IMG/VR virus record: IMGVR_UViG_2667527666_000009
Source of the DNA: a virus
Lineage: Duplodnaviria > Heunggongvirae > Uroviricota > Caudoviricetes
Strand: one strand, 5' to 3'
Length of the DNA: 46,534 nucleotides
Of the stretch, positions 2,619 through 36,366 are shown in pieces. Under the pieces are notes generated by a model, which had not been told where the DNA came from, did not search any database, and saw nothing but the letters and a program-made list of their open reading frames with translations. Each line of letters begins with the position of its first letter. The first letter of the stretch is position 1. Position numbers and translations under genes: made by a program.

Positions 2619-3209
2619 ATGTCTCGAATTTTTGCTTACTGTCGGATATCAACGCTGGATCAGACCACCGAAAATCAACGCCGGGAAATCGAAAGTGCAG
2701 GTTTTAAAATCAAACCTCAGCAAATAATCGAAGAACACATTAGCGGCTCAGCAGCAACCAGTGAGCGTCCTGGTTTTAACCGGTTGCTTGCTCGCCTGAA
2801 ATGTGGTGATCAATTGATTGTGACAAAATTGGATCGCCTTGGTTGTAATGCAATGGATATCAGGAAAACAGTGGAACAACTGACCGAAACAGGTATCAGA
2901 GTGCATTGCTTAGCATTGGGGGGCATTGACCTGACCAGTCCAACAGGAAAAATGATGATGCAAGTAATTTCAGCAGTCGCTGAATTTGAACGAGACCTTT
3001 TACTTGAACGCACTCATTCCGGGATAGTAAGAGCCCGGGGCGCAGGGAAACGTTTTGGTCGACCACCTGTGTTAAATGAAGAACAGAAACAGGTGGTATT
3101 CGAACGGATTAAGTCAGGTGTAAGTATAAGTGCCATTGCCCGGGAATTCAAAACCTCGCGGCAAACCATTTTAAGAGCCAAAGCAAAACTTCAGACACCT
3201 GACATATAA
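2619..3209 (+). CDS. pinQ: serine-recombinase DNA invertase (Pin/Gin/Hin/Cin family)
   Basis: 196 aa; N-terminal catalytic motif YCRISTLDQ (resolvase/invertase active-site Ser) and C-terminal HTH. Confidence 0.9.
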
Positions 3210-3436
3210 AAAATAATCTCGGTGTGAGATGCTTTACGTCTTCCAAGCCCCCTTCCTTGCCGTAAATGGAAAGATACATCTAATTATAGAATTTATATGT
3301 TTTACCCTACGGCAGTGCTGGCCATTCAATATCCTGTGCAGTTGACGTATCAACACGGTTCAGCAACACCCGATACTTTTTCCTGGCTTCCAGCAACGGG
3401 GTTTCTTCCTCCGTTGCATATACAGCTCACCTTTTT

Positions 3437-3730
3437 TCACCCACGATTAACCAACAGCCAGATCAGCAGACACGCCACCACCGGCACAGCAAAATCCATC
3501 AGGCTTGCCACATCCCAAACACGCGGATCAAAACCGCCCCACCACGGCATGTTAATCCGCTTGCCATGCCCGAACATTTCAATCCAGCGATATTCTGCCT
3601 GGGTGTGTTCACGCGCAATGAAGAACGTACAACCAGCTATCGCCCCATAAGCCCAGTTTCCGGTAAAAAGACCAACCAGTGTCTGCGCAGCCACAGCACA
3701 AAGCGCATGAAGAAAAGGTGTTATATCCAT
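3437..3730 (-). CDS. hypothetical small inner-membrane protein, last gene of the tail-fibre operon
   Basis: 97 aa with two or three hydrophobic helices; starts 11 nt after the upstream gene; no family recognised. Confidence 0.45.
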   Translation of the reverse strand: MDITPFLHALCAVAAQTLVGLFTGNWAYGAIAGCTFFIAREHTQAEYRWIEMFGHGKRINMPWWGGFDPRVWDVASLMDFAVPVVACLLIWLLVNRG

Positions 3731-3740
3731 TACTCCTCCT

Positions 3741-4445
3741 TTATCTAATATCGCTTCGGGAAGTTAATAACAACTTTAATTCTGACTCAAGTTCATCAAC
3801 TCTTTCAGTCAGTTTCTGGATATGGTGAATCAGTGGAACAACCAGACGTTCGTACATTACACCTTCGGCAACAAGGCCATTGCTGGAAATAGCTTCAGGA
3901 GCATCATCTTCGTTAGCTGGTCGCCAGTGTACAAACTGAGGAGCAATTTCTCCTACTTCCTCGGCAATCAATCCGTAGAATCCCCAGTCACGCCTGTCAT
4001 TTTCGCATTGCGACCTGTACCACACAGGGCGCATCCTGAAAATGAGATCGGCGTGCTCTGAATCTATTGTCTCTACTGAATGTTTATAGCGGATAGACGA
4101 TGTTGACCGCAGCACAGACGAAATTGCACGGTCAGGATTAAGATAAAGGTTTGCCGCCGCTGTAGTCGTGGCCAAATTCCATAAATAAAACGCTTCACGA
4201 CCTGTCAGTGGATAAAAATCTCCGCCATAACGACCACTTTCCAGATCGTTCACTTCCACTTTGTTTTTCAGCTTATTATCAACTTCAGTTTTTGTGTATC
4301 TGGAGCTGATATCCTGCTTTGCACTGGTCATCTCAGTCTGAAGCGTTGATACTTTTCTGCTAATTGATGAAATATCTTCCTTAGCTTTACTGACATCCCC
4401 CTTTAGCTTGGTGATATCTCCTGGAATTACTGTCGATGTAGCCAT
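3741..4445 (-). CDS. tail-fibre-like protein with coiled-coil N-terminus and peptidase-S74-type intramolecular chaperone domain
   Basis: 234 aa; N-terminal heptad-rich region (KLKGDVSKAKEDISSISRKVSTLQTEM) then a C-terminal segment resembling the autoproteolytic chaperone domain of tail spikes/fibres (SSIRYK..., GFYGLIAEEV..., terminal coiled coil). Confidence 0.6.
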   Translation of the reverse strand: MATSTVIPGDITKLKGDVSKAKEDISSISRKVSTLQTEMTSAKQDISSRYTKTEVDNKLKNKVEVNDLESGRYGGDFYPLTGREAFYLWNLATTTAAANLYLNPDRAISSVLRSTSSIRYKHSVETIDSEHADLIFRMRPVWYRSQCENDRRDWGFYGLIAEEVGEIAPQFVHWRPANEDDAPEAISSNGLVAEGVMYERLVVPLIHHIQKLTERVDELESELKLLLTSRSDIR

Positions 4446-4454
4446 TTTCCTGCC

Positions 4455-4736
4455 TCACATCCAGCCACGAAGTTGATGCTCAACAACAACCGCGTATTTA
4501 TCGAATATTGACGATTTTTTTGCATCATTAATGATGCGCACGTTTACAAAATATCCGTCTTCCTTAACACATACCGGCTCGCCATCTTCAGTAAGTTCTC
4601 CGGTTTCTTTGTACACGTTACCTATCACGTCAATAAGAATATCATCCTGCATCGACTCGTCATCATAATAGCCAGCACTCTTCATAAAGGCCGAAAAGTC
4701 GGCCTTGTCTGTGAATTTGATAATTAAATCTCGCAT
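4455..4736 (-). CDS. hypothetical protein translationally coupled to the side tail fibre gene (possible fibre assembly factor)
   Basis: 93-aa ORF; its ATG overlaps the stf stop codon (TAATG on the minus strand at 4734..4738). Confidence 0.45.
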   Translation of the reverse strand: MRDLIIKFTDKADFSAFMKSAGYYDDESMQDDILIDVIGNVYKETGELTEDGEPVCVKEDGYFVNVRIINDAKKSSIFDKYAVVVEHQLRGWM

Positions 4737-7120
4737 TATATTATCTCTCCCATTTGCGCATCGGTTAATTCTTTATGCCATATTCTAAAATTCCTGATAT
4801 AACCAAATAAATGACGTAAGCCGGCTGTAGTCTGGCCTCCAATCCTTATACCTGTAGCACCACTAACACTCTTCCACGTTGTTGATGCTGGTGTTGATAA
4901 AACCCCATTGCAGCCAGCCTGAAACTTGCCATCGCTTTTTATTCTATATACAGCGATAATCTTTCTTGGGTAATTTCCAGGTGGAAATGATATTGGATTA
5001 CCAAATTGAACATATGGAGTTCCTACACTACCTGCTGTATTTCTGAATGCAAAAACAAAAGCGTCGTCTTTTGTTTTAAATCCTGTTATATCATAAATTC
5101 TAGGCGCGGAATTTGGTGCTATAGACCAATTTTTATTCACTTCAACCATGCAGGTTAAAGGTTTGCTGGCCATGTTATTTTTACAAGGCAATGTAACAAT
5201 ATCGCTTGCTCGCGTTGATGCAACTGTATCGGAAATGATAAAAGATGATGCGCATGAGCCGCCTTCAAATTGTGGTGTCGTAACATCCAAATATTCCCCG
5301 CCCAAATAAGTTCCAGGTGAAACAGGTGGAGCAATTTGGATCTGAGAGCCAACCATATTATCAATAGCTTCAGATTGATATGTAACCTCGAAATAAATCC
5401 ATCCATTAGATTCTTTCTCCGCTCGGGCGGTTATTCTTGCAGCCCCTCCTCCCGTTTTCCTAATGGACATATCTGTTATATTAAGATATGCATCTGCCAG
5501 ATAAAAATATGCGGACCCGTCATATCTTTCAAATCTTATACGACATTGTATATTAGCACTATCGCTTTTTACACGACATGATGTTGTAACATACTTTTCA
5601 GTTCCAGTAACATCGACACCTCTTCCTCCTGAAACCGCAGCGATATTCATTGTCGTATTTGTCCCAATTTTTTCGTCCTTTATTTGAAACCGCCCATAAG
5701 TAAAGCCAAACTCATCAACACCACTTTCTGTTATAGTTACACTTGTTGTAGCTCCCCACTTAGATGGCGTAAGTGAATTAAGATGATAGTTGGTTCTTTG
5801 TCCTTCAATCAGCAAACCTTCTCGTTCAAATCGCGGTTCGTCAACTTCAGCAACGGTTAATACTCCTGATTTATTAATGTATGTTGCACCTGATGCGCGT
5901 TTGAAGCTAACAACCTTATCGGATGGCATTTTAATAACATCATCACCTACAGTTATTTGCTTATAACCAGGCGAAAAGCCAGCAAGCATATCCAGTGAAT
6001 CGTTAAACGGTATCCACACATCGGGAAGCGGCTGCAAAACTTGTTTATACGGCTCCGCAGCCTGGCTTGCATACTCTCTGGCTGCGTCTTCACTTGCTTT
6101 TGCAGCCGTCTGGCTTGCAGCGGATGCTTTCGCCGAGTTAGCCGCCGCAGTCTCGCTCGCCTTTGCGTTGGTTTCACTGGTTTTTGCAGCTTTTTGACTG
6201 TTGGCTGATGCAGTGGCAGAAGAAGCCGCCGCACTTGCAGAACCAGCTGCGGCACTCTCGCTTTGGGCCGCTGCATCCTGACTGTTTTTCGCCGCAGTTT
6301 CGCTGGCTTTGGCATTCGTTTCGCTGGTCTTCGCTGCCGTCTGGCTGGACTTTGCGTTAGTTTCACTCGTCTTCGCTGCTTTCTGACTGTTAGCCGCAGC
6401 AGTTGCTGATCCAGCTGCTGAAGTCGCAGAACCGGCTGCCGCGCTCTCGCTTTGGGCTGCTGCAACCTGGCTGTTTTTTGCCGCAGTTTCACTGGCTTTG
6501 GCATTCGTTTCGCTGGTCTTCGCTGCCGTCTGGCTGGACTTTGCGTTGGTTTCGCTCGTCTTTGCGGCTGTCTCGCTGTTTTTCGCGTTGGTTTCTGATT
6601 TTTTGGCTGCTGTCGCGGAGTTTGCCGATGCAGTCTGTGAGGTCGCTGCCGCCTGTGCGCTGTTAGCTGCATTCGTTTCTGAGGTTTTCGCCGCGTTCTT
6701 CGATGATGCCGCTGCAGTTTCGGATTTCTTTGCCGCCGCTGCGCTCTGAGAGGCGGCTTCGGCGTTGCGTGCCGCTTCTTCCACCATTTCCTCAAAACGG
6801 CGCAATGCCTCCGGCATGACATCATCTTCCGTCATGGCACCGAGAAAATCATTCAGCGTACCTGGTCTGGAACCTTCATAGACGGTAATGGTCCCGGCAT
6901 GTGAAGGCGGAAAACCTTCAACCAGCAGGGTGACGCTGTACTGGCCATACTCAACATCCATGCTGTAACGTCCGGCTTCATCCGGATTTTCAGAAGCCAC
7001 CGTGTTCACCAGTACCGTGGTGCTGTTACGCTTTGCCTTCAGTTGAATAGTGCAGTTCTGTATTGGTTTTCCCGCACCATCTTTCAGCACACCTGAGATT
7101 TTTACTGCTGCCATATCCAC
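4736..7120 (-). CDS. stf: side tail fibre protein (lambda Stf-like N-terminus, Ala/Ser/Thr-rich repeat shaft, lectin-like C-terminal domain)
   Basis: 794 aa; N-terminus AVKISGVLKDG...GRYSMDVEYGQYSV...HAGTITVYE matches lambda Stf; central low-complexity repeats; C-terminus has a laminin-G/concanavalin-like motif (FRIWHKELTDAQM). Confidence 0.85.
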   Translation of the reverse strand: MDMAAVKISGVLKDGAGKPIQNCTIQLKAKRNSTTVLVNTVASENPDEAGRYSMDVEYGQYSVTLLVEGFPPSHAGTITVYEGSRPGTLNDFLGAMTEDDVMPEALRRFEEMVEEAARNAEAASQSAAAAKKSETAAASSKNAAKTSETNAANSAQAAATSQTASANSATAAKKSETNAKNSETAAKTSETNAKSSQTAAKTSETNAKASETAAKNSQVAAAQSESAAAGSATSAAGSATAAANSQKAAKTSETNAKSSQTAAKTSETNAKASETAAKNSQDAAAQSESAAAGSASAAASSATASANSQKAAKTSETNAKASETAAANSAKASAASQTAAKASEDAAREYASQAAEPYKQVLQPLPDVWIPFNDSLDMLAGFSPGYKQITVGDDVIKMPSDKVVSFKRASGATYINKSGVLTVAEVDEPRFEREGLLIEGQRTNYHLNSLTPSKWGATTSVTITESGVDEFGFTYGRFQIKDEKIGTNTTMNIAAVSGGRGVDVTGTEKYVTTSCRVKSDSANIQCRIRFERYDGSAYFYLADAYLNITDMSIRKTGGGAARITARAEKESNGWIYFEVTYQSEAIDNMVGSQIQIAPPVSPGTYLGGEYLDVTTPQFEGGSCASSFIISDTVASTRASDIVTLPCKNNMASKPLTCMVEVNKNWSIAPNSAPRIYDITGFKTKDDAFVFAFRNTAGSVGTPYVQFGNPISFPPGNYPRKIIAVYRIKSDGKFQAGCNGVLSTPASTTWKSVSGATGIRIGGQTTAGLRHLFGYIRNFRIWHKELTDAQMGEII
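6060..6760. repeat. tandem repeat array inside stf; two near-identical 189-bp units (core 6291..6358 and 6480..6547) flanked by diverged copies
   Basis: direct comparison of the two cores shows a near-exact match at an offset of 189 bp (63 codons), giving repeated KTSETNAKSSQTAAKTSETNAKASETAAKNSQ-type peptide units. Confidence 0.8.
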
Positions 7121-27927: not shown

Positions 27928-28102
27928 TCAGATTAAATTAATCTTGACATCATAGCTTTCAAGACCCGTCATTTTTTCCCGTGCGGTAAACTGAATACTG
28001 GTAACTTCTTTCCCGGTCTTTTTCTTAAGTTCAATAATTTTTTTTTGTTATATATTCAGAAATATCTGCTTCTGCTTTTGTTTTTAAGTTTTCAATATTC
28101 AT
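27928..28102 (-). pseudogene. gnsB: gnsB-like gene interrupted by a frameshift in a 9-nt homopolymer
   Basis: minus-strand translation from ATG 28100..28102 gives MNIENLKTKAEADISEYITKK then a stop after the run of nine T (plus 28038..28046); the other frame continues IIELKKKTGKEVTSIQFTAREKMTGLESYDVKINLI, GnsA/GnsB-like to the stop at 27928..27930. Confidence 0.6.
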
Positions 28103-29350: not shown

Positions 29351-30374
<1,024 letters not shown>

Positions 30375-30378
<4 letters not shown>

Positions 30379-30686
30379 AGATATTTATGATGAGGACGCT
30401 CGTGCTTATTGGCAGGATTTTCAATCTTAAAGGAGTACTGATGCTGCAGATAAGACTCAACTTTTTCTGACAATTTTTCTGCTACTTCCAGGAAGACTTG
30501 CCGGACGCTCCTTCTGGCTGCTGCCTCATAAAACTCCAGCGCAGCTCCTTCAACACGGTCCATGGCGACATCCAGGTCAAAAATTTCACCGTCAAAGCGT
30601 TCTTTGTCCTGTAAGGCTACAGTTACCGTAACTTTATTCTCAAAATTACGGACTCCTTTCACAACCAGTTCATAGTCTTGAGTCAT
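30375..30686 (-). CDS. ydfR: DUF1327-family protein between holin and endolysin
   Basis: 103 aa; MTQDYELVVKGVRNFENKVTVTVALQDKERFDGEIFDLDV... matches recalled YdfR. Confidence 0.7.
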
Positions 30687-30690
30687 TGGA

Positions 30691-30906
30691 TTACTCTCCT
30701 CTCGCAGCCTTACGCCTGTCTTCTTTAATCTTGAAATAAAGATTTGTCAGATACGTCAGCAGGCCAAAAACCAGGCTACCCAGCACACCGATTGCAGCCC
30801 ACTGTGACGGAGTTACTTTATCGAGTAACTGCAATGCCCAGAAACCAGCATTACCCGCCGATGTGCCATAGGCAACACCTGTTGTTAACTTATCCATTGA
30901 TTTCAT
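30691..30906 (-). CDS. essQ: pinholin (phage 21 S-type class II holin)
   Basis: ORF 30691..30981; start taken at [18 protein letters not shown] (ATG 30904..30906); two transmembrane helices and charged C-terminus ([10 protein letters not shown]) as in S21. Confidence 0.8.
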
Positions 30907-31296: not shown

Positions 31297-31659
31297 TTGA
31301 TTTTATTAGTAACAAGTATTTTTTATATTTTAATAATATATTTAAAGCAGATAATAAAAAACCCGCCTGAGCGGGTTTGAGATTGTGGTGCTTTTTGTGG
31401 GAGTCATCCACTTACGCACTTTGTTTTGCCATGCCAGCAGTTAGCTTCTGCTGTAAAACTATTCATGCAGCAAACCTGCACTTCACCACAATGGTTAGCA
31501 TACTTTTCCTGATTAAGATTTTGCCAAATATGCTAGCCATTGTTTCATGTATTGGACCTCCTTACTTTTTATTAAAGAGATCCAATATTCACTACTCTGT
31601 CCGTATCTCTACTCAGGCATCAGCCTTCTTCGTTATCGTATACAGACGAGCGATGAATT

Positions 31660-31875
31660 TTAATCAGTAATGATGACATTTGCTGCTGCAGGACCTTTAG
31701 CACCACTCTCTATAGAGAAGGTAACCTTTTGACCTTCAAATAAGGTTCGATAATTATCATTCTGAATCGCAGAAAAATGCACAAACACATCTTTACTACC
31801 ATCAACAGGAGAAATAAAGCCGAAACCTTTATCAGCGTTAAACCATTTTACTAAACCAGTCATTTTATTTGACAT
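31660..31875 (-). CDS. cspB: cold shock protein (CspA family)
   Basis: 71 aa; [67 protein letters not shown]... Confidence 0.9.
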
Positions 31876-32175
31876 TCTACATTCCTTAACTTGAGCCTTT
31901 CGGCATAAATGGTTTGCATAACAGAAACGACTTCGTACTTAATTGGAGAGACTCAAAGAAGGAATAAGTGAATAACACCTGAAATGAGAACTGCTTTAGT
32001 AAACTACTTCGTATATCGTCTGTTCTTCAAACCGACGCAATCATTAACGCATAGTTGAACATATGAAGCAATGTTTATTTTAGACATCCAGCCATCTTCA
32101 ACCCCATCAAAAAACTATAGCTTTCTTCAGGAACGTGTGTATAGTGCGCCAAGTTATCAGTATTAAGGAATTTTT

Positions 32176-32388: not shown

Positions 32389-32809
32389 GCTATATTAAAG
32401 CTTTAATTTCAGGCCCCATCGGATCACACATGGAGAGTTTTTATGAATAACCCCGTCTGTCTTGATGACTGGTTGATTGGCTTTAAAAGCTTATGCTGTA
32501 CTTTGGCCGTAATAGCTCTGCTAATAATATAATAAGCAGACTCATTGTGTTTAGGGACATTGTACTGGAAGAAAACATTTTAAACATCAGGCAAATAACC
32601 AAGTCACCAGCTAAATAATAAGTTAACAGACATGAGTCCCGGGATGAGATTCAACATTACCATTGCCCCATTTAAAGCACAAAACCCGCTCATCAGCGGG
32701 TTTTCTACTTTTTCTTAACGTCGGGTATACAAAGCCCATCGTTGAAAAAATTTTATCCATATTTTTTGAAAAATGCAAACATCATGTCGCCATCTTCAGC
32801 AAAAATCAT

Positions 32810-33116
32810 TTATCTCGTCACCTTCCTCAATTGCGCTTCCGCGTATGCTTCTTCCTGCCAGCACTTTGTTACCAGTTTACCAATGACGTCCGCATACCCC
32901 TTATACCACTGATAATCGGTCAGGTCTGGTACCAGCTTCTGGACATGACGTCGTGCCAGCGTGGTCGGTAAACGACTAAACCGGTTTCCATTACAACGCC
33001 CACAAATCTTATATACCGGTACGCCATGAAACCGGGTTCTTTTTTCATCCAGAACAATCCCTTTACCCTTACACCCTCTGCACGCTGTGCTGGCTTCGCC
33101 CTTACCATGGCAATGC
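32810..33116 (-). pseudogene. quuQ: late-gene antiterminator Q, C-terminal fragment truncated by IS629
   Basis: minus-strand frame ending at the TAA at 32810..32812 encodes ...CRGCKGKGIVLDEKRTRFHGVPVYKICGRCNGNRFSRLPTTLARRHVQKLVPDLTDYQWYKGYADVIGKLVTKCWQEEAYAEAQLRKVTR, parallel to the lambda Q zinc-finger C-terminus; the frame runs into the IS629 inverted repeat at 33117 with no start codon. Confidence 0.75.
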
Positions 33117-33170
33117 TGAACCGCCCCGGGAATCCTGGAGACTAAACTTCCTGAGAAAGAGGTAAACAGG

Positions 33171-33497
33171 ATGACTAAAAATACTCGTTTTTCCCCCGAA
33201 GTCCGTCAACGGGCAGTCCGTATGGTTCTGGAAAGTCAGAGCGAATATGACTCACAATGGGCGACAATTTGTTCCATTGCTCCAAAGATTGGCTGTACGC
33301 CGGAGACTCTGCGTGTCTGGGTTCGCCAGCATGAGCGGGATACCGGGGGCGGTGATGGAGGGCTCACCACCGCTGAACGTCAGCGTCTGAAAGAGCTGGA
33401 ACGTGAAAATCGTGAACTGCGCCGCAGTAACGATATCCTTCGCCAGGCTTCCGCTTATTTTGCGAAGGCGGAGTTCGACCGCCTCTGGAAAAAATGA
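33171..33497 (+). CDS. IS629 transposase OrfA (HTH)
   Basis: 108 aa; [23 protein letters not shown]... matches recalled IS629 OrfA; ends at an A6 tract (33489..33494) where the -1 frameshift to OrfB would occur. Confidence 0.85.
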
Positions 33498-34384
33498 TGC
33501 CACTGCTGGATAAGCTGCGTGAGCAGTACGGGGTCGGACCGCTATGCAGCGAACTGCATATTGCCCCGTCAACGTATTACCACTGTCAGCAACAGCGACA
33601 TCATCCGGATAAACGCAGTGCCCGTGCGCAGCGCGATGACTGGCTGAAGAAAGAGATACAGCGCGTATACGATGAAAATCACAAGGTATACGGTGTGCGT
33701 AAAGTCTGGCGTCAGTTGTTACGGGAAGGTATCAGAGTGGCCAGATGCACTGTGGCACGTCTCATGGCGGTTATGGGACTTGCCGGTGTTCTCCGGGGTA
33801 AAAAGGTCCGTACGACCATCAGCCGGAAAGCCGTTGCCGCAGGCGACCGCGTAAACCGTCAGTTCGTGGCAGAACGACCTGACCAGCTGTGGGTGGCTGA
33901 TTTTACTTACGTCAGCACATGGCGGGGCTTCGTCTATGTGGCGTTCATCATTGATGTGTTTGCCGGATACATCGTGGGGTGGCGGGTCTCATCGTCCATG
34001 GAAACGACATTCGTGCTGGATGCACTGGAGCAGGCGTTATGGGCCCGTCGACCGTCCGGCACGGTCCATCACAGTGATAAAGGTTCTCAGTATGTATCGC
34101 TGGCCTACACACAGCGGCTTAAGGAAGCCGGATTACTGGCATCAACAGGAAGTACAGGCGACTCGTATGACAACGCGATGGCGGAGAGCATCAATGGTCT
34201 TTACAAAGCGGAGGTAATACACCGTAAGAGCTGGAAAAACCGTGCAGAAGTGGAACTGGCCACACTCACGTGGGTGGACTGGTATAACAATCGACGATTG
34301 CTGGAAAGGCTGGGCCATACTCCTCCGGCAGAAGCAGAAAAAGCTTATTATGCTTCCATCGGAAACGATGATCTGGCAGCCTGA
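33494..34384 (+). CDS. IS629 transposase OrfB (DDE integrase core)
   Basis: 296 aa in the -1 frame relative to OrfA; DDE-type catalytic region. Confidence 0.85.
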
Positions 34385-34718
34385 GTTCACAGATAAAACA
34401 CTCTCCAGGAAACCCGGGGCGGTTCACCACGAGTTTAACTGACAACCCATGATCAATTATGAATTGCAACTATTTCTGTAGTCACTTTTGTGGGGACAGT
34501 CCACAAAACTGCCAACTTCCGCTTCTTGCTCTTAGCGGACATTAGCATAGGCTATTTACCATAACGCCTCATTACGCGCACCGCCCAGACTGACTCAGCG
34601 CGTTTCTGGCATATCCCCGGTAAAACAAGTAACAAACCACCCGAAAATGAACACCAGAAACGCGACTTAAGAATCTACCCTATGAATGGATATGCACTCA
34701 ACCGAATCGATCTTGGTT

Positions 34719-36032
34719 TCAATCTTTTTTATCGGGATCAGGCTTCTTTTTAGGTAACTTCGGGGGCTTAACTTGCTGATGACTTTGCGTTCGGCGCGTA
34801 AGCCAGGGATGGTCAGCTTTAGGTTTAACATAGTATTTTGAGCGTAAATCAATACGGGCATTATCCACTCGTTCATGGACACTCTTTTCATCATCCAGTG
34901 GTATAGGCTCCGGGCCATCAACATACTTTTCCCAGCCCAGCGCTTTCCCGTCATACAGAACGTTAATTTCACCGTCAAAGTTCTCGCATACAGTAACAAC
35001 CGAATGCCTAAGTCGATATCCCCGGCCCTCACTGCGTACCTGAAACGCACTGCTTTTGTACTGGAAAGTGAGATTTTTAGACAGAACGCGCTTCGCCTGT
35101 AGGCTGAAGATATAACCCAGTTCCTCTTCAGAATGGTGCACATCAAGATGAGCATTATCAGTAGTACGAGGCGACGTAGCGAACCGGTTGTTATAGGCTT
35201 CAATAAAGGTCGGCAACCATGCATTTGCTGTTTCAATATCACTGATATTCTGAAGCCGCATTTCTTTGACCAGCCTGTCCTGTAGTGTCTGATTGGCGCG
35301 CTCTACCCGCCCTTTTGCCTGCGGGCTGTTGGCATGGATTGGCTCGATGCCCAGTGTCTTTATCGCACGAGTGAACTGGGTCAGCTCACCTTCCCGCTCT
35401 GGGTTATTTACCCTGAATATACTGTGTCTATCAGAGTAGAGAGCGAGCGGTACGCCATGATCATTAAGGTAACCCCGGAGGGTTTCCATGTAAGCCCGGG
35501 TTGTTTCAGCAGGCACAAAACGCAACGCCATCAACGCACTGGTGGCATCATCAATGAAAACGATCAGTGTACATCTGGGGCCTCGATTTTCAAACCAGTC
35601 ATGAGGTGAGCCATCAATCTGGATCAGTTCACCGTAAGATGGTCGTCGCATGCGGCGTTGATATATACGGGCAATTTTACGACGGCGTTCACGCCATAAC
35701 CCCTCTTCTATCATCCACTTTCTGAGAGTTTCAACGGATAAAGATAAACCGTGTATCTCGCGCAATTTTTCGCACGCAAACGTAGGTCCAAAATCAGCGT
35801 AACGGCCTTTGAGGAGTGAAATTACTGTTGCTCTGAATTCAGTAGAAAAGGAATTATTAGGACGCTTTCCACGTCGGTGGGAAACCAGACCAGAAGGCCC
35901 TTCATTTCTATACCGTTGCACCAGACGTTTAACCTGCCGAATAGAAATGCCAATGCGTGCCGCAGCTTGTTCCTGAATAATCTGAAGTCGGTGGAGTTCC
36001 TTATGACTCATCGTAACAGTCTCTTTGATCAT
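34719..36032 (-). CDS. single-ORF DDE transposase (HTH plus rve integrase core; IS481- or ISNCY-like)
   Basis: 437 aa; N-terminal HTH, central DDE region with D...D...E(x)K/R signature, basic C-terminal tail; element boundaries not resolved. Confidence 0.7.
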   Translation of the reverse strand: MIKETVTMSHKELHRLQIIQEQAAARIGISIRQVKRLVQRYRNEGPSGLVSHRRGKRPNNSFSTEFRATVISLLKGRYADFGPTFACEKLREIHGLSLSVETLRKWMIEEGLWRERRRKIARIYQRRMRRPSYGELIQIDGSPHDWFENRGPRCTLIVFIDDATSALMALRFVPAETTRAYMETLRGYLNDHGVPLALYSDRHSIFRVNNPEREGELTQFTRAIKTLGIEPIHANSPQAKGRVERANQTLQDRLVKEMRLQNISDIETANAWLPTFIEAYNNRFATSPRTTDNAHLDVHHSEEELGYIFSLQAKRVLSKNLTFQYKSSAFQVRSEGRGYRLRHSVVTVCENFDGEINVLYDGKALGWEKYVDGPEPIPLDDEKSVHERVDNARIDLRSKYYVKPKADHPWLTRRTQSHQQVKPPKLPKKKPDPDKKD

Positions 36033-36366
36033 GAAAAATCCCCCAGAGAATTGTCTGGGGACATTTTAGAATGGTTCAAAGGGGACATTACAGCTTGGTG
36101 TTAACAATAGCCTGCTTCTCCGTGCCTTTCGGCACGTAAGAGGCTAACCTACATGTGTCTAGCATGAAATTGGCCTCAGATTAATGTTAAGCGTCTTGCA
36201 GGACGCGTAATGTTAACTGGGGCTTTTCTCTATCTGCCGTTGGTGTCCATGCCCGAGGCAGATAGCCTCAAGCACCCGCAGTCATTCTACTTAACTAAGA
36301 TTTCCCCGCAAACCGTTTTTGTCCAGCACAGTAAATATCCAACTAAACCAATGGAGTTCGCTGTAT

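Follow-up and report, generated by a model that had tools for sequence, protein, structure and literature searches.

A 4,086-bp deletion, with a complete IS629 at its junction, truncates the Q antiterminator gene of a Qin-type prophage

The DNA stretch analysed here, 46.5 kb in length and hereafter referred to as the window, corresponds to a Qin-type lambdoid prophage of E. coli, present in full length at the ydfJ/rspB site. As established by comparison with its relatives, a complete IS629 in this prophage lies where 4,086 bp have been deleted, among them the front 60% of the gene for the Q antiterminator and two toxin-antitoxin loci. Recombination between two IS629 copies appears the most likely route, and the loss of Q would lock the prophage in place. 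I consider this reading, taken as a whole, well supported.

The window is integrated between ydfJ and rspB, with a truncated ydfJ at 4-1284 and int at its right end, and shows the gene order tail-head-terminase-cspI-lysis-cspB/F-Q...dicA/C-dicB-xis-int. By sequence comparison this layout is collinear with those of IAI1 and RM10809-3, and the identity to the best matches is ∼97% in the left 25 kb and 99.9% in the right 12 kb. Two modules are relevant to what follows:

3741-26686, minus strand: virion module, intact (full-length tblastn matches, uninterrupted ORFs)
29351-30906, minus strand: lysis cassette, intact, with the essD holin, ydfR, the rrrQ lysozyme and rzpQ (99-100% full-length identity to IAI1 proteins)

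The virion module spans the small terminase subunit (nohA), terminase, portal, S49 protease, capsid, tail, J, lom, and the tail fibre with its assembly protein; for the tail fibre, identity to its IAI1 counterpart is as low as 59%. ORF lengths in the lysis cassette are 165, 177 and 103 amino acids. A preliminary description of this DNA, made from the sequence alone, had regarded both modules as intact, and indeed every ORF in them is full length (tblastn against IAI1 proteins and ORF check). Pfam searches returned no match for four other products, namely those of the 321-aa early ORF, rem, ydfV and the 92-aa ORF.

The insertion sequence was delimited from its ends, ORFs, pseudoknot and sequence identity:

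33117-34426, plus strand: complete IS629 (IS3 family), 1,310 bp
33117-33141: IRL, the left terminal inverted repeat
33171-33497, plus strand: orfA, 108 aa, HTH (PF01527)
33452-33568: frameshift pseudoknot, Rfam RF01497 (ALIL), 120 bits
33494-34384, plus strand: orfB, 296 aa, DDE/rve (PF00665)
34402-34426: IRR, the right terminal inverted repeat

The imperfect inverted repeats of this ∼1,310-bp element start TGAACCGCCCCGGG and match at 22 of 25 positions. The orfA and orfB genes overlap and are accompanied by the frameshift pseudoknot, as in IS3-family elements that join the two ORFs by programmed −1 frameshifting, and the NCBIfam IS3 model also matches. Over the full 1,310 nt, the element is 99.5% identical to Stx-phage copies annotated as 'IS3 family IS629' (LC567824, LC567828), which agrees with its earlier designation as a complete 1310-bp IS629, and it is 100% identical to the copies in L002 and L006.

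On the left, IS629 abuts what is left of the Q gene:

32810-33116, minus strand: 3' remnant of Q (ydfT/quuQ type), residues 150-250 plus stop, no start (translation, PF03589, YdfT identity)
32681-32779, minus strand: putative late promoter and GC-rich hairpin with a T-run (consensus scan)

The minus strand from 33115 to 32813 translates as an open frame of 101 amino acids, followed by a stop codon at 32810-32812. The product matches the Pfam family PF03589 'Antitermination protein Q' (E=6e-32) over all 87 model positions, shows 100% identity to YdfT of E. coli IAI1 (250 aa) over residues 149/150-250 of the latter, and keeps the zinc-binding CxxC pairs in its C-terminal domain. Reading upstream into the IS, no in-frame ATG, GTG or TTG was found before fragment codon 96, and expression of the remnant from an internal start was rejected on this ground. 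The N-terminal coding sequence (residues 1-149) is absent from the whole window by tblastn, and no complete Q ORF with a start and N-terminal region is present at the locus. The preliminary description, in which a Q C-terminus ran into IS629 with no start codon and the N-terminal part was missing beyond the other IS end, is thus upheld by these alignments to Q-family references, the 101 codons abutting the left IS end at 33117. Among the 2,471 complete genomes with a ydfT-type gene, 2,419 carry it at 80% completeness or more, and an intact gene is therefore the norm.

Just downstream of the Q stop codon, putative promoter elements were picked up by the consensus scan (−35 TTTGCA at 32779-32774, −10 TAAAAT at 32755-32750), together with a terminator-like GC-rich hairpin with a T-run at 32681-32704. 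These are likely the equivalent of PR'/qut/tR', retained in the window. The downstream TCAACGATGGG presumably resembles the lambda PR' initial transcribed region.

The flanks of the IS629 read CAATGC on the left and CCACGAG on the right, and the adjoining triplets, TGC and CCA, do not form a duplication; none of 2-5 bp is present, including the 3-bp target-site duplication of IS629. As controls, three copies of this IS that had simply inserted in other genomes do have 3-bp duplications (CAA/CAA, CAC/CAC and TAT/TAT). Four other IS629 copies lack one, and three of these (the second copy in L001, and those in L004 and L006) are located at deletions. The missing duplication is expected here, since the site is a deletion junction: in the intact Qin-type prophages L001, L003 and L007, the counterparts of the two window flanks (99.9-100% identical, collinear) lie 4,086 bp apart, in the region of ydfT codon ∼149 and in the flxA-ydfW spacer, and both breakpoints coincide exactly with the two ends of IS629. 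No 2-5-bp microhomology or shifted duplication was found at the breakpoints beyond 3 nt equal to the IS tip; intact ydfT continues with TGA, the triplet with which the IS begins, so that the breakpoint can be placed only to within 3 nt. The absence of a duplication, the 4,086-bp distance between the flanks and the position of the breakpoints at the IS ends therefore indicate, as had initially been proposed, an IS-associated deletion and not a simple insertion; neither matching 3-4 bp repeats nor a Q 5' half contiguous past 34426 was seen. The missing 4,086 bp comprise Q codons 1-149, ydfU, the 92-aa ORF, rem, hokD, relE, relB, ydfV and flxA, as well as the far end of a resident ISEsa1-family element.

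This element and its surroundings occupy the right side of the junction:

34427-36106, minus strand: truncated ISEsa1-family (IS1202 family / ISNCY) element, identical to positions 9001-10680 of L003
34719-36032, minus strand: transposase gene, 437 aa, single-ORF DDE, NCBIfam NF033594 (ISNCY family)
36081-36106: transposase-proximal terminal repeat, retained
36107-36277, minus strand: orphan hokD-locus leader, consisting of one copy of a 15-bp target duplication and sok (Rfam RF01794, duplication analysis)

The transposase, which starts 292 bp beyond IS629, scores 456 bits against NF033594 (cutoff 250), identifying it as a single-ORF DDE transposase of the ISNCY/IS1202 type; its 437 amino acids lack a stretch of 9 (ESINRHITQ) found in the 446-aa plasmid copies. 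The element keeps its spacer, the transposase gene and one terminal repeat, and has lost its other 1.6 kb, with the far terminal repeat, relE, relB, ydfV and flxA. Intact relatives have both element ends; the window contains no far terminal repeat. Comparison with these relatives places the IS629 junction inside the element. Position 34427, at which matches to plasmids begin, was tried as an end of the ISEsa1-type element and rejected, as homology runs on into flxA-relE.

The preliminary description had noted a second transposase adjacent to IS629. A different single-ORF DDE transposase does follow, but it is not a new neighbour, being resident in Qin-type prophages generally. Judged by these alignments, the ISEsa1-type transposase was already in place and not brought in by the event, and the deletion cut its element too. 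Beyond it, ATAGCCTGCTTCTCC at 36107-36121 is one copy of the 15-bp target duplication, and a full-length gene for the sok antisense RNA is found at 36106-36277 (RF01794, 104 bits, model positions 1-157 of 157). No hokD was found in the window by tblastn, and sok is therefore unpaired.

In intact relatives the ISEsa1-family element is a 3.3-kb unit (3.27-3.31 kb) carrying relBE-ydfV-flxA. This form was found in Qin-type prophages and some plasmids, with terminal repeats matching at 19 of 26 positions, and at three different hok genes it is flanked by exact 15-bp duplications located at the start codon. RefSeq names the transposase 'IS1202-like element ISEsa1 family'; ISEsa1 belongs to the IS1202 family, formerly the ISNCY IS1202 group, and is listed at 1,609 bp with no detectable target duplication (Harmer and Hall 2023, PMC10132070). 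The window transposase matches the ISNCY model NF033594, as noted above, and the 1.6-kb form present on most plasmids fits the listed length, whereas the 3.27-3.31-kb form has 15-bp duplications and a relBE-ydfV-flxA cargo, and the window copy is one-ended. From four plasmid copies, three of which share one flank, the left end of the short form can be placed to ∼10 nt at best. I slightly favour the view that the partner element is a 3.3-kb ISEsa1-family transporter with relBE-ydfV-flxA, site-specific for the Shine-Dalgarno/start-codon region of hok genes and generating a 15-bp duplication, and not a plain 1.6-kb IS. If so, this would explain the origin of the classical relB-relE-hokD (relBEF) operon of E. 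coli, and also the 'no duplication' listing of ISEsa1, the short form being a one-ended derivative like that made by IS629 here. A possibly useful by-product of this analysis is the evidence for transport of relBE to hokD by an ISEsa1-family element targeting hok start sites.

In the route that I consider most likely for the deletion, IS629 would have inserted twice, in the same orientation, in the nin-like region, and homologous recombination between the two 1.3-kb copies would have excised the interval between them. The remaining IS629 would then have TGC on one side, as the left duplication copy from one insertion, and CCA on the other, as the right copy from the second insertion. Such two-copy intermediates are plausible because other strains carry plus-orientation IS629 copies elsewhere in this interval: L001 within rem, L005 at 134 bp to the left of the right junction, and L004 immediately upstream of ydfT. 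Neither presumed single-insertion intermediate was detected in 5,426 complete E. coli genomes, GTDB species representatives, JGI metagenomes and 64 IMG/VR loci.

A single IS629, inserted at one of the two sites, could also have given rise to an adjacent deletion in one step, through its transposase or with the aid of the IS-excision enhancer IEE, one flank staying in place and the other end being fused 4.1 kb away. This would yield the same product as in the window, with the IS kept, no duplication and both breakpoints at its ends, and is a credible, if less probable, alternative. According to PMC9943667, deletions from a few nt to >40 kb occur next to IS629 in IEE-dependent events, and IEE is present in >30% of E. 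coli assemblies; the same paper links these events to IS excision, whereas the IS in the window is intact. IS3-family elements moreover move by copy-out-paste-in, and the microhomology at the junction is limited to the 3 nt equal to the IS tip.

It is very improbable that the junction is an assembly artefact, in which two IS629 copies flanking the 4.1-kb segment were collapsed, with Q interrupted and its 5' part kept. IS copies are classic collapse points, and the exact junction pair occurs in no other genome searched: the 31-nt left and right junction strings have no match in GTDB species representatives or JGI metagenomes, 300-nt junction queries against the 5,426 complete E. coli genomes recovered nearby or analogous events but no identical junction, and the junction is absent from 64 of 64 IMG/VR loci carrying the ISEsa1-type transposase. 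However, one contiguous 46.5-kb sequence across a 1.3-kb repeat suggests a long-read or finished assembly, analogous real deletions are seen in finished genomes (L001, L004 and L006), and Q would be split by IS629 even so. Still harder to credit is a simple IS629 insertion into a mosaic lineage that never had the 4.1-kb segment and had a naturally short Q region: lambdoid prophages are mosaic, and the window itself differs in identity between its left and right parts, but the Q frame is cut mid-domain with no start codon, a simple insertion should leave a 3-bp duplication, the breakpoints fall exactly at IS ends and not at gene boundaries, and neither an ISEsa1-type element without its second end nor sok without hok fits such an ancestor.

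Whichever route produced the deletion, lambda-type Q biology suggests that, without Q, RNA polymerase starting from the retained putative late promoter would stop at downstream terminators, and that the lysis and virion genes would then be silent on induction. The prophage would be locked in place unless another prophage supplies a compatible Q. Since the virion and lysis ORFs are all full length, Q loss is probably what locks it, but it may not be the sole defect, because even 'intact' Qin-type relatives have early-region pseudogenes. A more complex rearrangement could in principle have moved the Q 5' part to another place in the genome.

The main finding is a routine, strain-specific case of ordinary and well-known prophage decay, and leaves current understanding unchanged. 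It is nonetheless a clean example of prophage domestication, in which one IS-linked deletion takes away the late-gene switch together with two toxin-antitoxin loci, yet spares ∼27 kb of lysis and virion genes; toxin-antitoxin loci of this kind are often said to stabilise such elements. For annotation, this prophage should not be classed as 'intact' from gene content alone; the Q remnant should be recorded as a pseudogene, and the neighbouring transposase gene assigned to a truncated element.

In E. coli O157, many of the inactivated genes and genomic deletions are traced to IS629, a main source of both according to PMC9943667, which cites Ooka et al. 2009 and Kusumoto et al. 2011 for IS629-associated deletions and inactivation in E. 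coli prophages. The window resembles the O157 cases in having the same IS (99.5%) at a deletion junction in a lambdoid prophage with no target duplication; it differs in being a Qin-type prophage at ydfJ/rspB, with a junction private to this sequence among the genomes searched. Compared with lambda Q (PDB 4MO1, 7UBM), full-length YdfT aligns over the N-terminal 120 and C-terminal 91 residues, including the zinc-binding CxxC pairs, but is 43 amino acids longer and has extra CxxCxGxG motifs. The remnant corresponds to lambda Q residues 117-207 or thereabouts, and only the C-terminal 40% of Q is left in the window, without a start codon. The cryptic Qin prophage of K-12 (quuQ/ydfT, relBE-hokD, dicBF) shares the integration site, the cspI-to-int gene order, the Q family and the resident ISEsa1-type transposase remnant (ydfW/intK region). 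K-12 Qin has kept Q and relBE-hokD and lost its virion genes. The decay seen here is the reverse, with virion and lysis genes kept, and Q and relBE-hokD lost.

The window (46.5 kb) is one complete Qin-type lambdoid prophage, and its gene order is collinear with the prophages of E. coli IAI1 and O22:H8 RM10809-3. It runs from a 5'-truncated ydfJ at the left end (4-1284) through pinQ - tail fibre - J - tail - head - portal - terminase - nohA - ydfO/gnsB/cspI, and then through rzpQ/rrrQ/ydfR/essD - cspB - cspF - Q ... dicC/dicA - dicB - exonuclease - xis - int, the integrase gene ending at the right end. Head, tail, terminase and lysis genes all have full-length matches and uninterrupted ORFs, in agreement with the preliminary description, where the lysis and virion modules had looked intact. 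The tail-fibre gene (794 aa, region 3297-7120) is only 59% identical to the IAI1 version in its N-terminal part, and 3' of it are found an assembly gene unlike that of IAI1 and a small inverted ORF beside the pinQ invertase gene (2619-3209); together, these suggest an invertible host-range segment of a type other than IAI1's. In gnsB (minus strand), a run of nine A at ~28038-28046, versus eight in IAI1, shifts the frame after codon ~20, and may be a real homopolymer slip or a sequencing error.

The features around the Q locus are as follows.

31644-32036, minus strand: full-length cspA-type thermoregulator 5' UTR, 5' of cspB (Rfam RF01766, 159 bits)
32810-33116, minus strand: remnant of ydfT, the Q antiterminator gene
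33117-34426: IS629
34427-36121: remnant of a 3.27-3.31-kb transposase unit
34719-36032, minus strand: transposase ORF of that unit, 437 aa, ISNCY/IS1202 family (NF033594, 456 bits)
36106-36277, minus strand: complete sok gene (Rfam RF01794, 104 bits)

Translation of the minus strand from 33115 to 32813 yields 101 residues, and a stop codon at 32810-32812 ends the frame. This fragment spans the entire Pfam PF03589 'Antitermination protein Q' model (E=6e-32), and matches residues 149/150-250 of the 250-aa YdfT (WP_001047135.1) with 100% identity. Since full-length YdfT aligns at both ends with the lambda Q structures 7UBM and 4MO1, the earlier labeling of the fragment as a lambda-Q-like zinc-finger C-terminus is accurate. 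The frame remains open for ~30 codons into IS629, and no ATG, GTG or TTG is present before codon 96 of the fragment; the Q frame thus enters the IS end without a start, as had been reported. A ydfT-type gene occurs in 2,471 complete E. coli genomes, and in 2,419 of them it is complete to at least 80%, which makes truncation the exception.

The interrupting element is, as first described, a complete IS629: it spans 1,310 bp, its terminal inverted repeats match at 22/25 positions, orfA and orfB encode HTH and rve domains, and an IS3 frameshift pseudoknot is present. Over the full length, Stx-phage copies annotated IS629 share 99.5% identity with it, and copies from further E. coli genomes 100%. 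The claimed lack of a target-site duplication was also confirmed, the flanks being ...CAATGC on the left and CCACGAG... on the right; as a control, three simple IS629 insertions among the fetched loci possess 3-bp duplications (CAA, CAC and TAT). Four further copies, all in lambdoid prophages, have no duplication (L001 12809-14118, L004 3397-4706, L006 4170-5479 and L032 1720-3029), and three of these mark deletions when compared with the common gene order.

I compared the flanks to those of intact relatives, using the intact prophage locus L003 as reference. The left flank ends at L003 4914, inside ydfT, and the right flank begins 4,086 bp away at L003 9001, in the spacer that separates flxA from the ydfW/transposase gene. 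The missing interval encompasses ydfT codons 1-149, ydfU (DUF968), a 92-aa ORF, rem, hokD, relE, relB, ydfV and flxA, none of which was found in the window, including the N-terminal part of Q already noted as missing. Both breakpoints are IS629 tips, with the sole ambiguity that TGA, with which the IS begins, also forms the next three bases of ydfT. Such a loss, with breakpoints at IS tips, is the standard footprint of IS-associated deletion, which upholds the initial proposal of a deletion rather than a simple insertion. Prophage decay of this kind is routine and has been well described before; the particular junction, and either single-insertion intermediate, are absent from the genome collections searched, and as far as can be seen the event is strain-specific.

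Recombination between two directly repeated IS629 copies would excise the interval and leave a single IS629. I favour this route, since IS3-family elements transpose by copy-out-paste-in, and since in other strains same-orientation IS629 copies are found at three further points of the interval (in rem, 134 bp from the right junction, and just upstream of ydfT). The second classical route, adjacent deletion from a single IS629 copy, is less favoured; its product is identical to that of two-copy recombination. Deletions beside IS629 during events dependent on the IS-excision enhancer (IEE) are described in PMC9943667, where IS629 is also named a main cause of inactivated genes and of genomic deletions in O157. 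IS629-linked loss around Q recurs in two other loci. In L006, IS629 cuts into a Q gene that is 89% identical to the one in the window, 19 nt from the equivalent position, and chromosomal glaH takes the place of the entire early region. Strain PE164 (L004) has lost the stretch that begins just upstream of ydfT and ends within the ISEsa1-type transposase gene.

A putative promoter and a T-run hairpin are kept directly downstream of the Q stop codon, presumably at the positions of lambda PR', qut and tR', and the holin gene is 1.9 kb further on, past cspF, cspB and ynfU. Without Q, transcription from the putative late promoter would terminate ahead of the holin gene, and the intact late genes would then remain silent. 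A Q of related type from another resident prophage could substitute for it; such a gene, 89% identical, is itself cut by IS629 in other strains. Since even the intact relatives have early-region pseudogenes, this prophage may have defects besides the loss of Q. The thermoregulator UTR and cspB form a cold-shock moron between Q and the holin gene, which late transcripts must read through.

The second transposase is adjacent to IS629, as the preliminary description stated, but is not a separate arrival: it belongs to the prophage type and is identical to the copy of intact relatives, which RefSeq annotates in two pieces, 'ydfW' and a partial transposase. It lacks 27 nt (~35975; 9 aa, ESINRHITQ, in the N-terminal HTH region) relative to the otherwise nearly identical 446-aa plasmid copies, which may affect its activity. 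In relatives, the transposase is part of a discrete 3,274-3,307-bp unit with relE, relB, ydfV and flxA (L003 7407-10680, L007 36900-40201, and the further loci L010 and L011), with ends TGTCAACGCAAAGC... and ...GCTTGGTGTTAACA, terminal inverted repeats that are 19/26 complementary. An exact 15-bp duplication flanks it, differing in sequence among three contexts.

ATAGCCTGCTTCTCC: Qin hokD
ATCATAGCCCCTCCA: Salmonella IncI plasmid hok
ATGGCCTTCTTCTCC: Enterobacter IncF plasmid hok

In all three, the duplication has the same position, from the Shine-Dalgarno to the second base of the hok start codon (ATG). The empty site is found in strain CP53 (L012), in a Qin-type prophage with an uninterrupted hokD-sok locus, and one copy in a non-hok context has only a 6-bp repeat. 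In relatives, the 3.3-kb insertion separates hok from sok. In the window, the IS629 junction falls inside the unit, whose far end and cargo are lost; sok, adjoining the surviving end, is orphaned, with hokD deleted altogether. Two loci from one IMG/VR source (2534681836; L055 and L074) possess 3.3-kb units with reciprocally exchanged flanks, hokD-type on one side and plasmid-hok-type on the other, which indicates that the two copies have recombined.

On plasmids, the element is mostly present as a 1.6-kb short form (L077-L080 examined), matching in length ISEsa1, which is 1,609 bp and listed without detectable duplication (Harmer and Hall, PMC10132070). In three of the four, the transposase-proximal end adjoins hok-leader-like sequence, and in the fourth (L078) ISKpn38 cuts this end; on the other side lies unrelated DNA, with a boundary varying by ~10 nt. 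This arrangement would fit one-ended derivatives, and the 1.6-kb forms may be truncated rather than the complete element. An integration into hokD of relBE, itself of plasmid origin, has been described (PMC6379469), with no vehicle named in the searchable text of that paper. The ISEsa1-family 3.3-kb unit may be the vehicle that made the relBE-hokD operon, and this ISEsa1-type relBE carrier is perhaps the only new part of the analysis.
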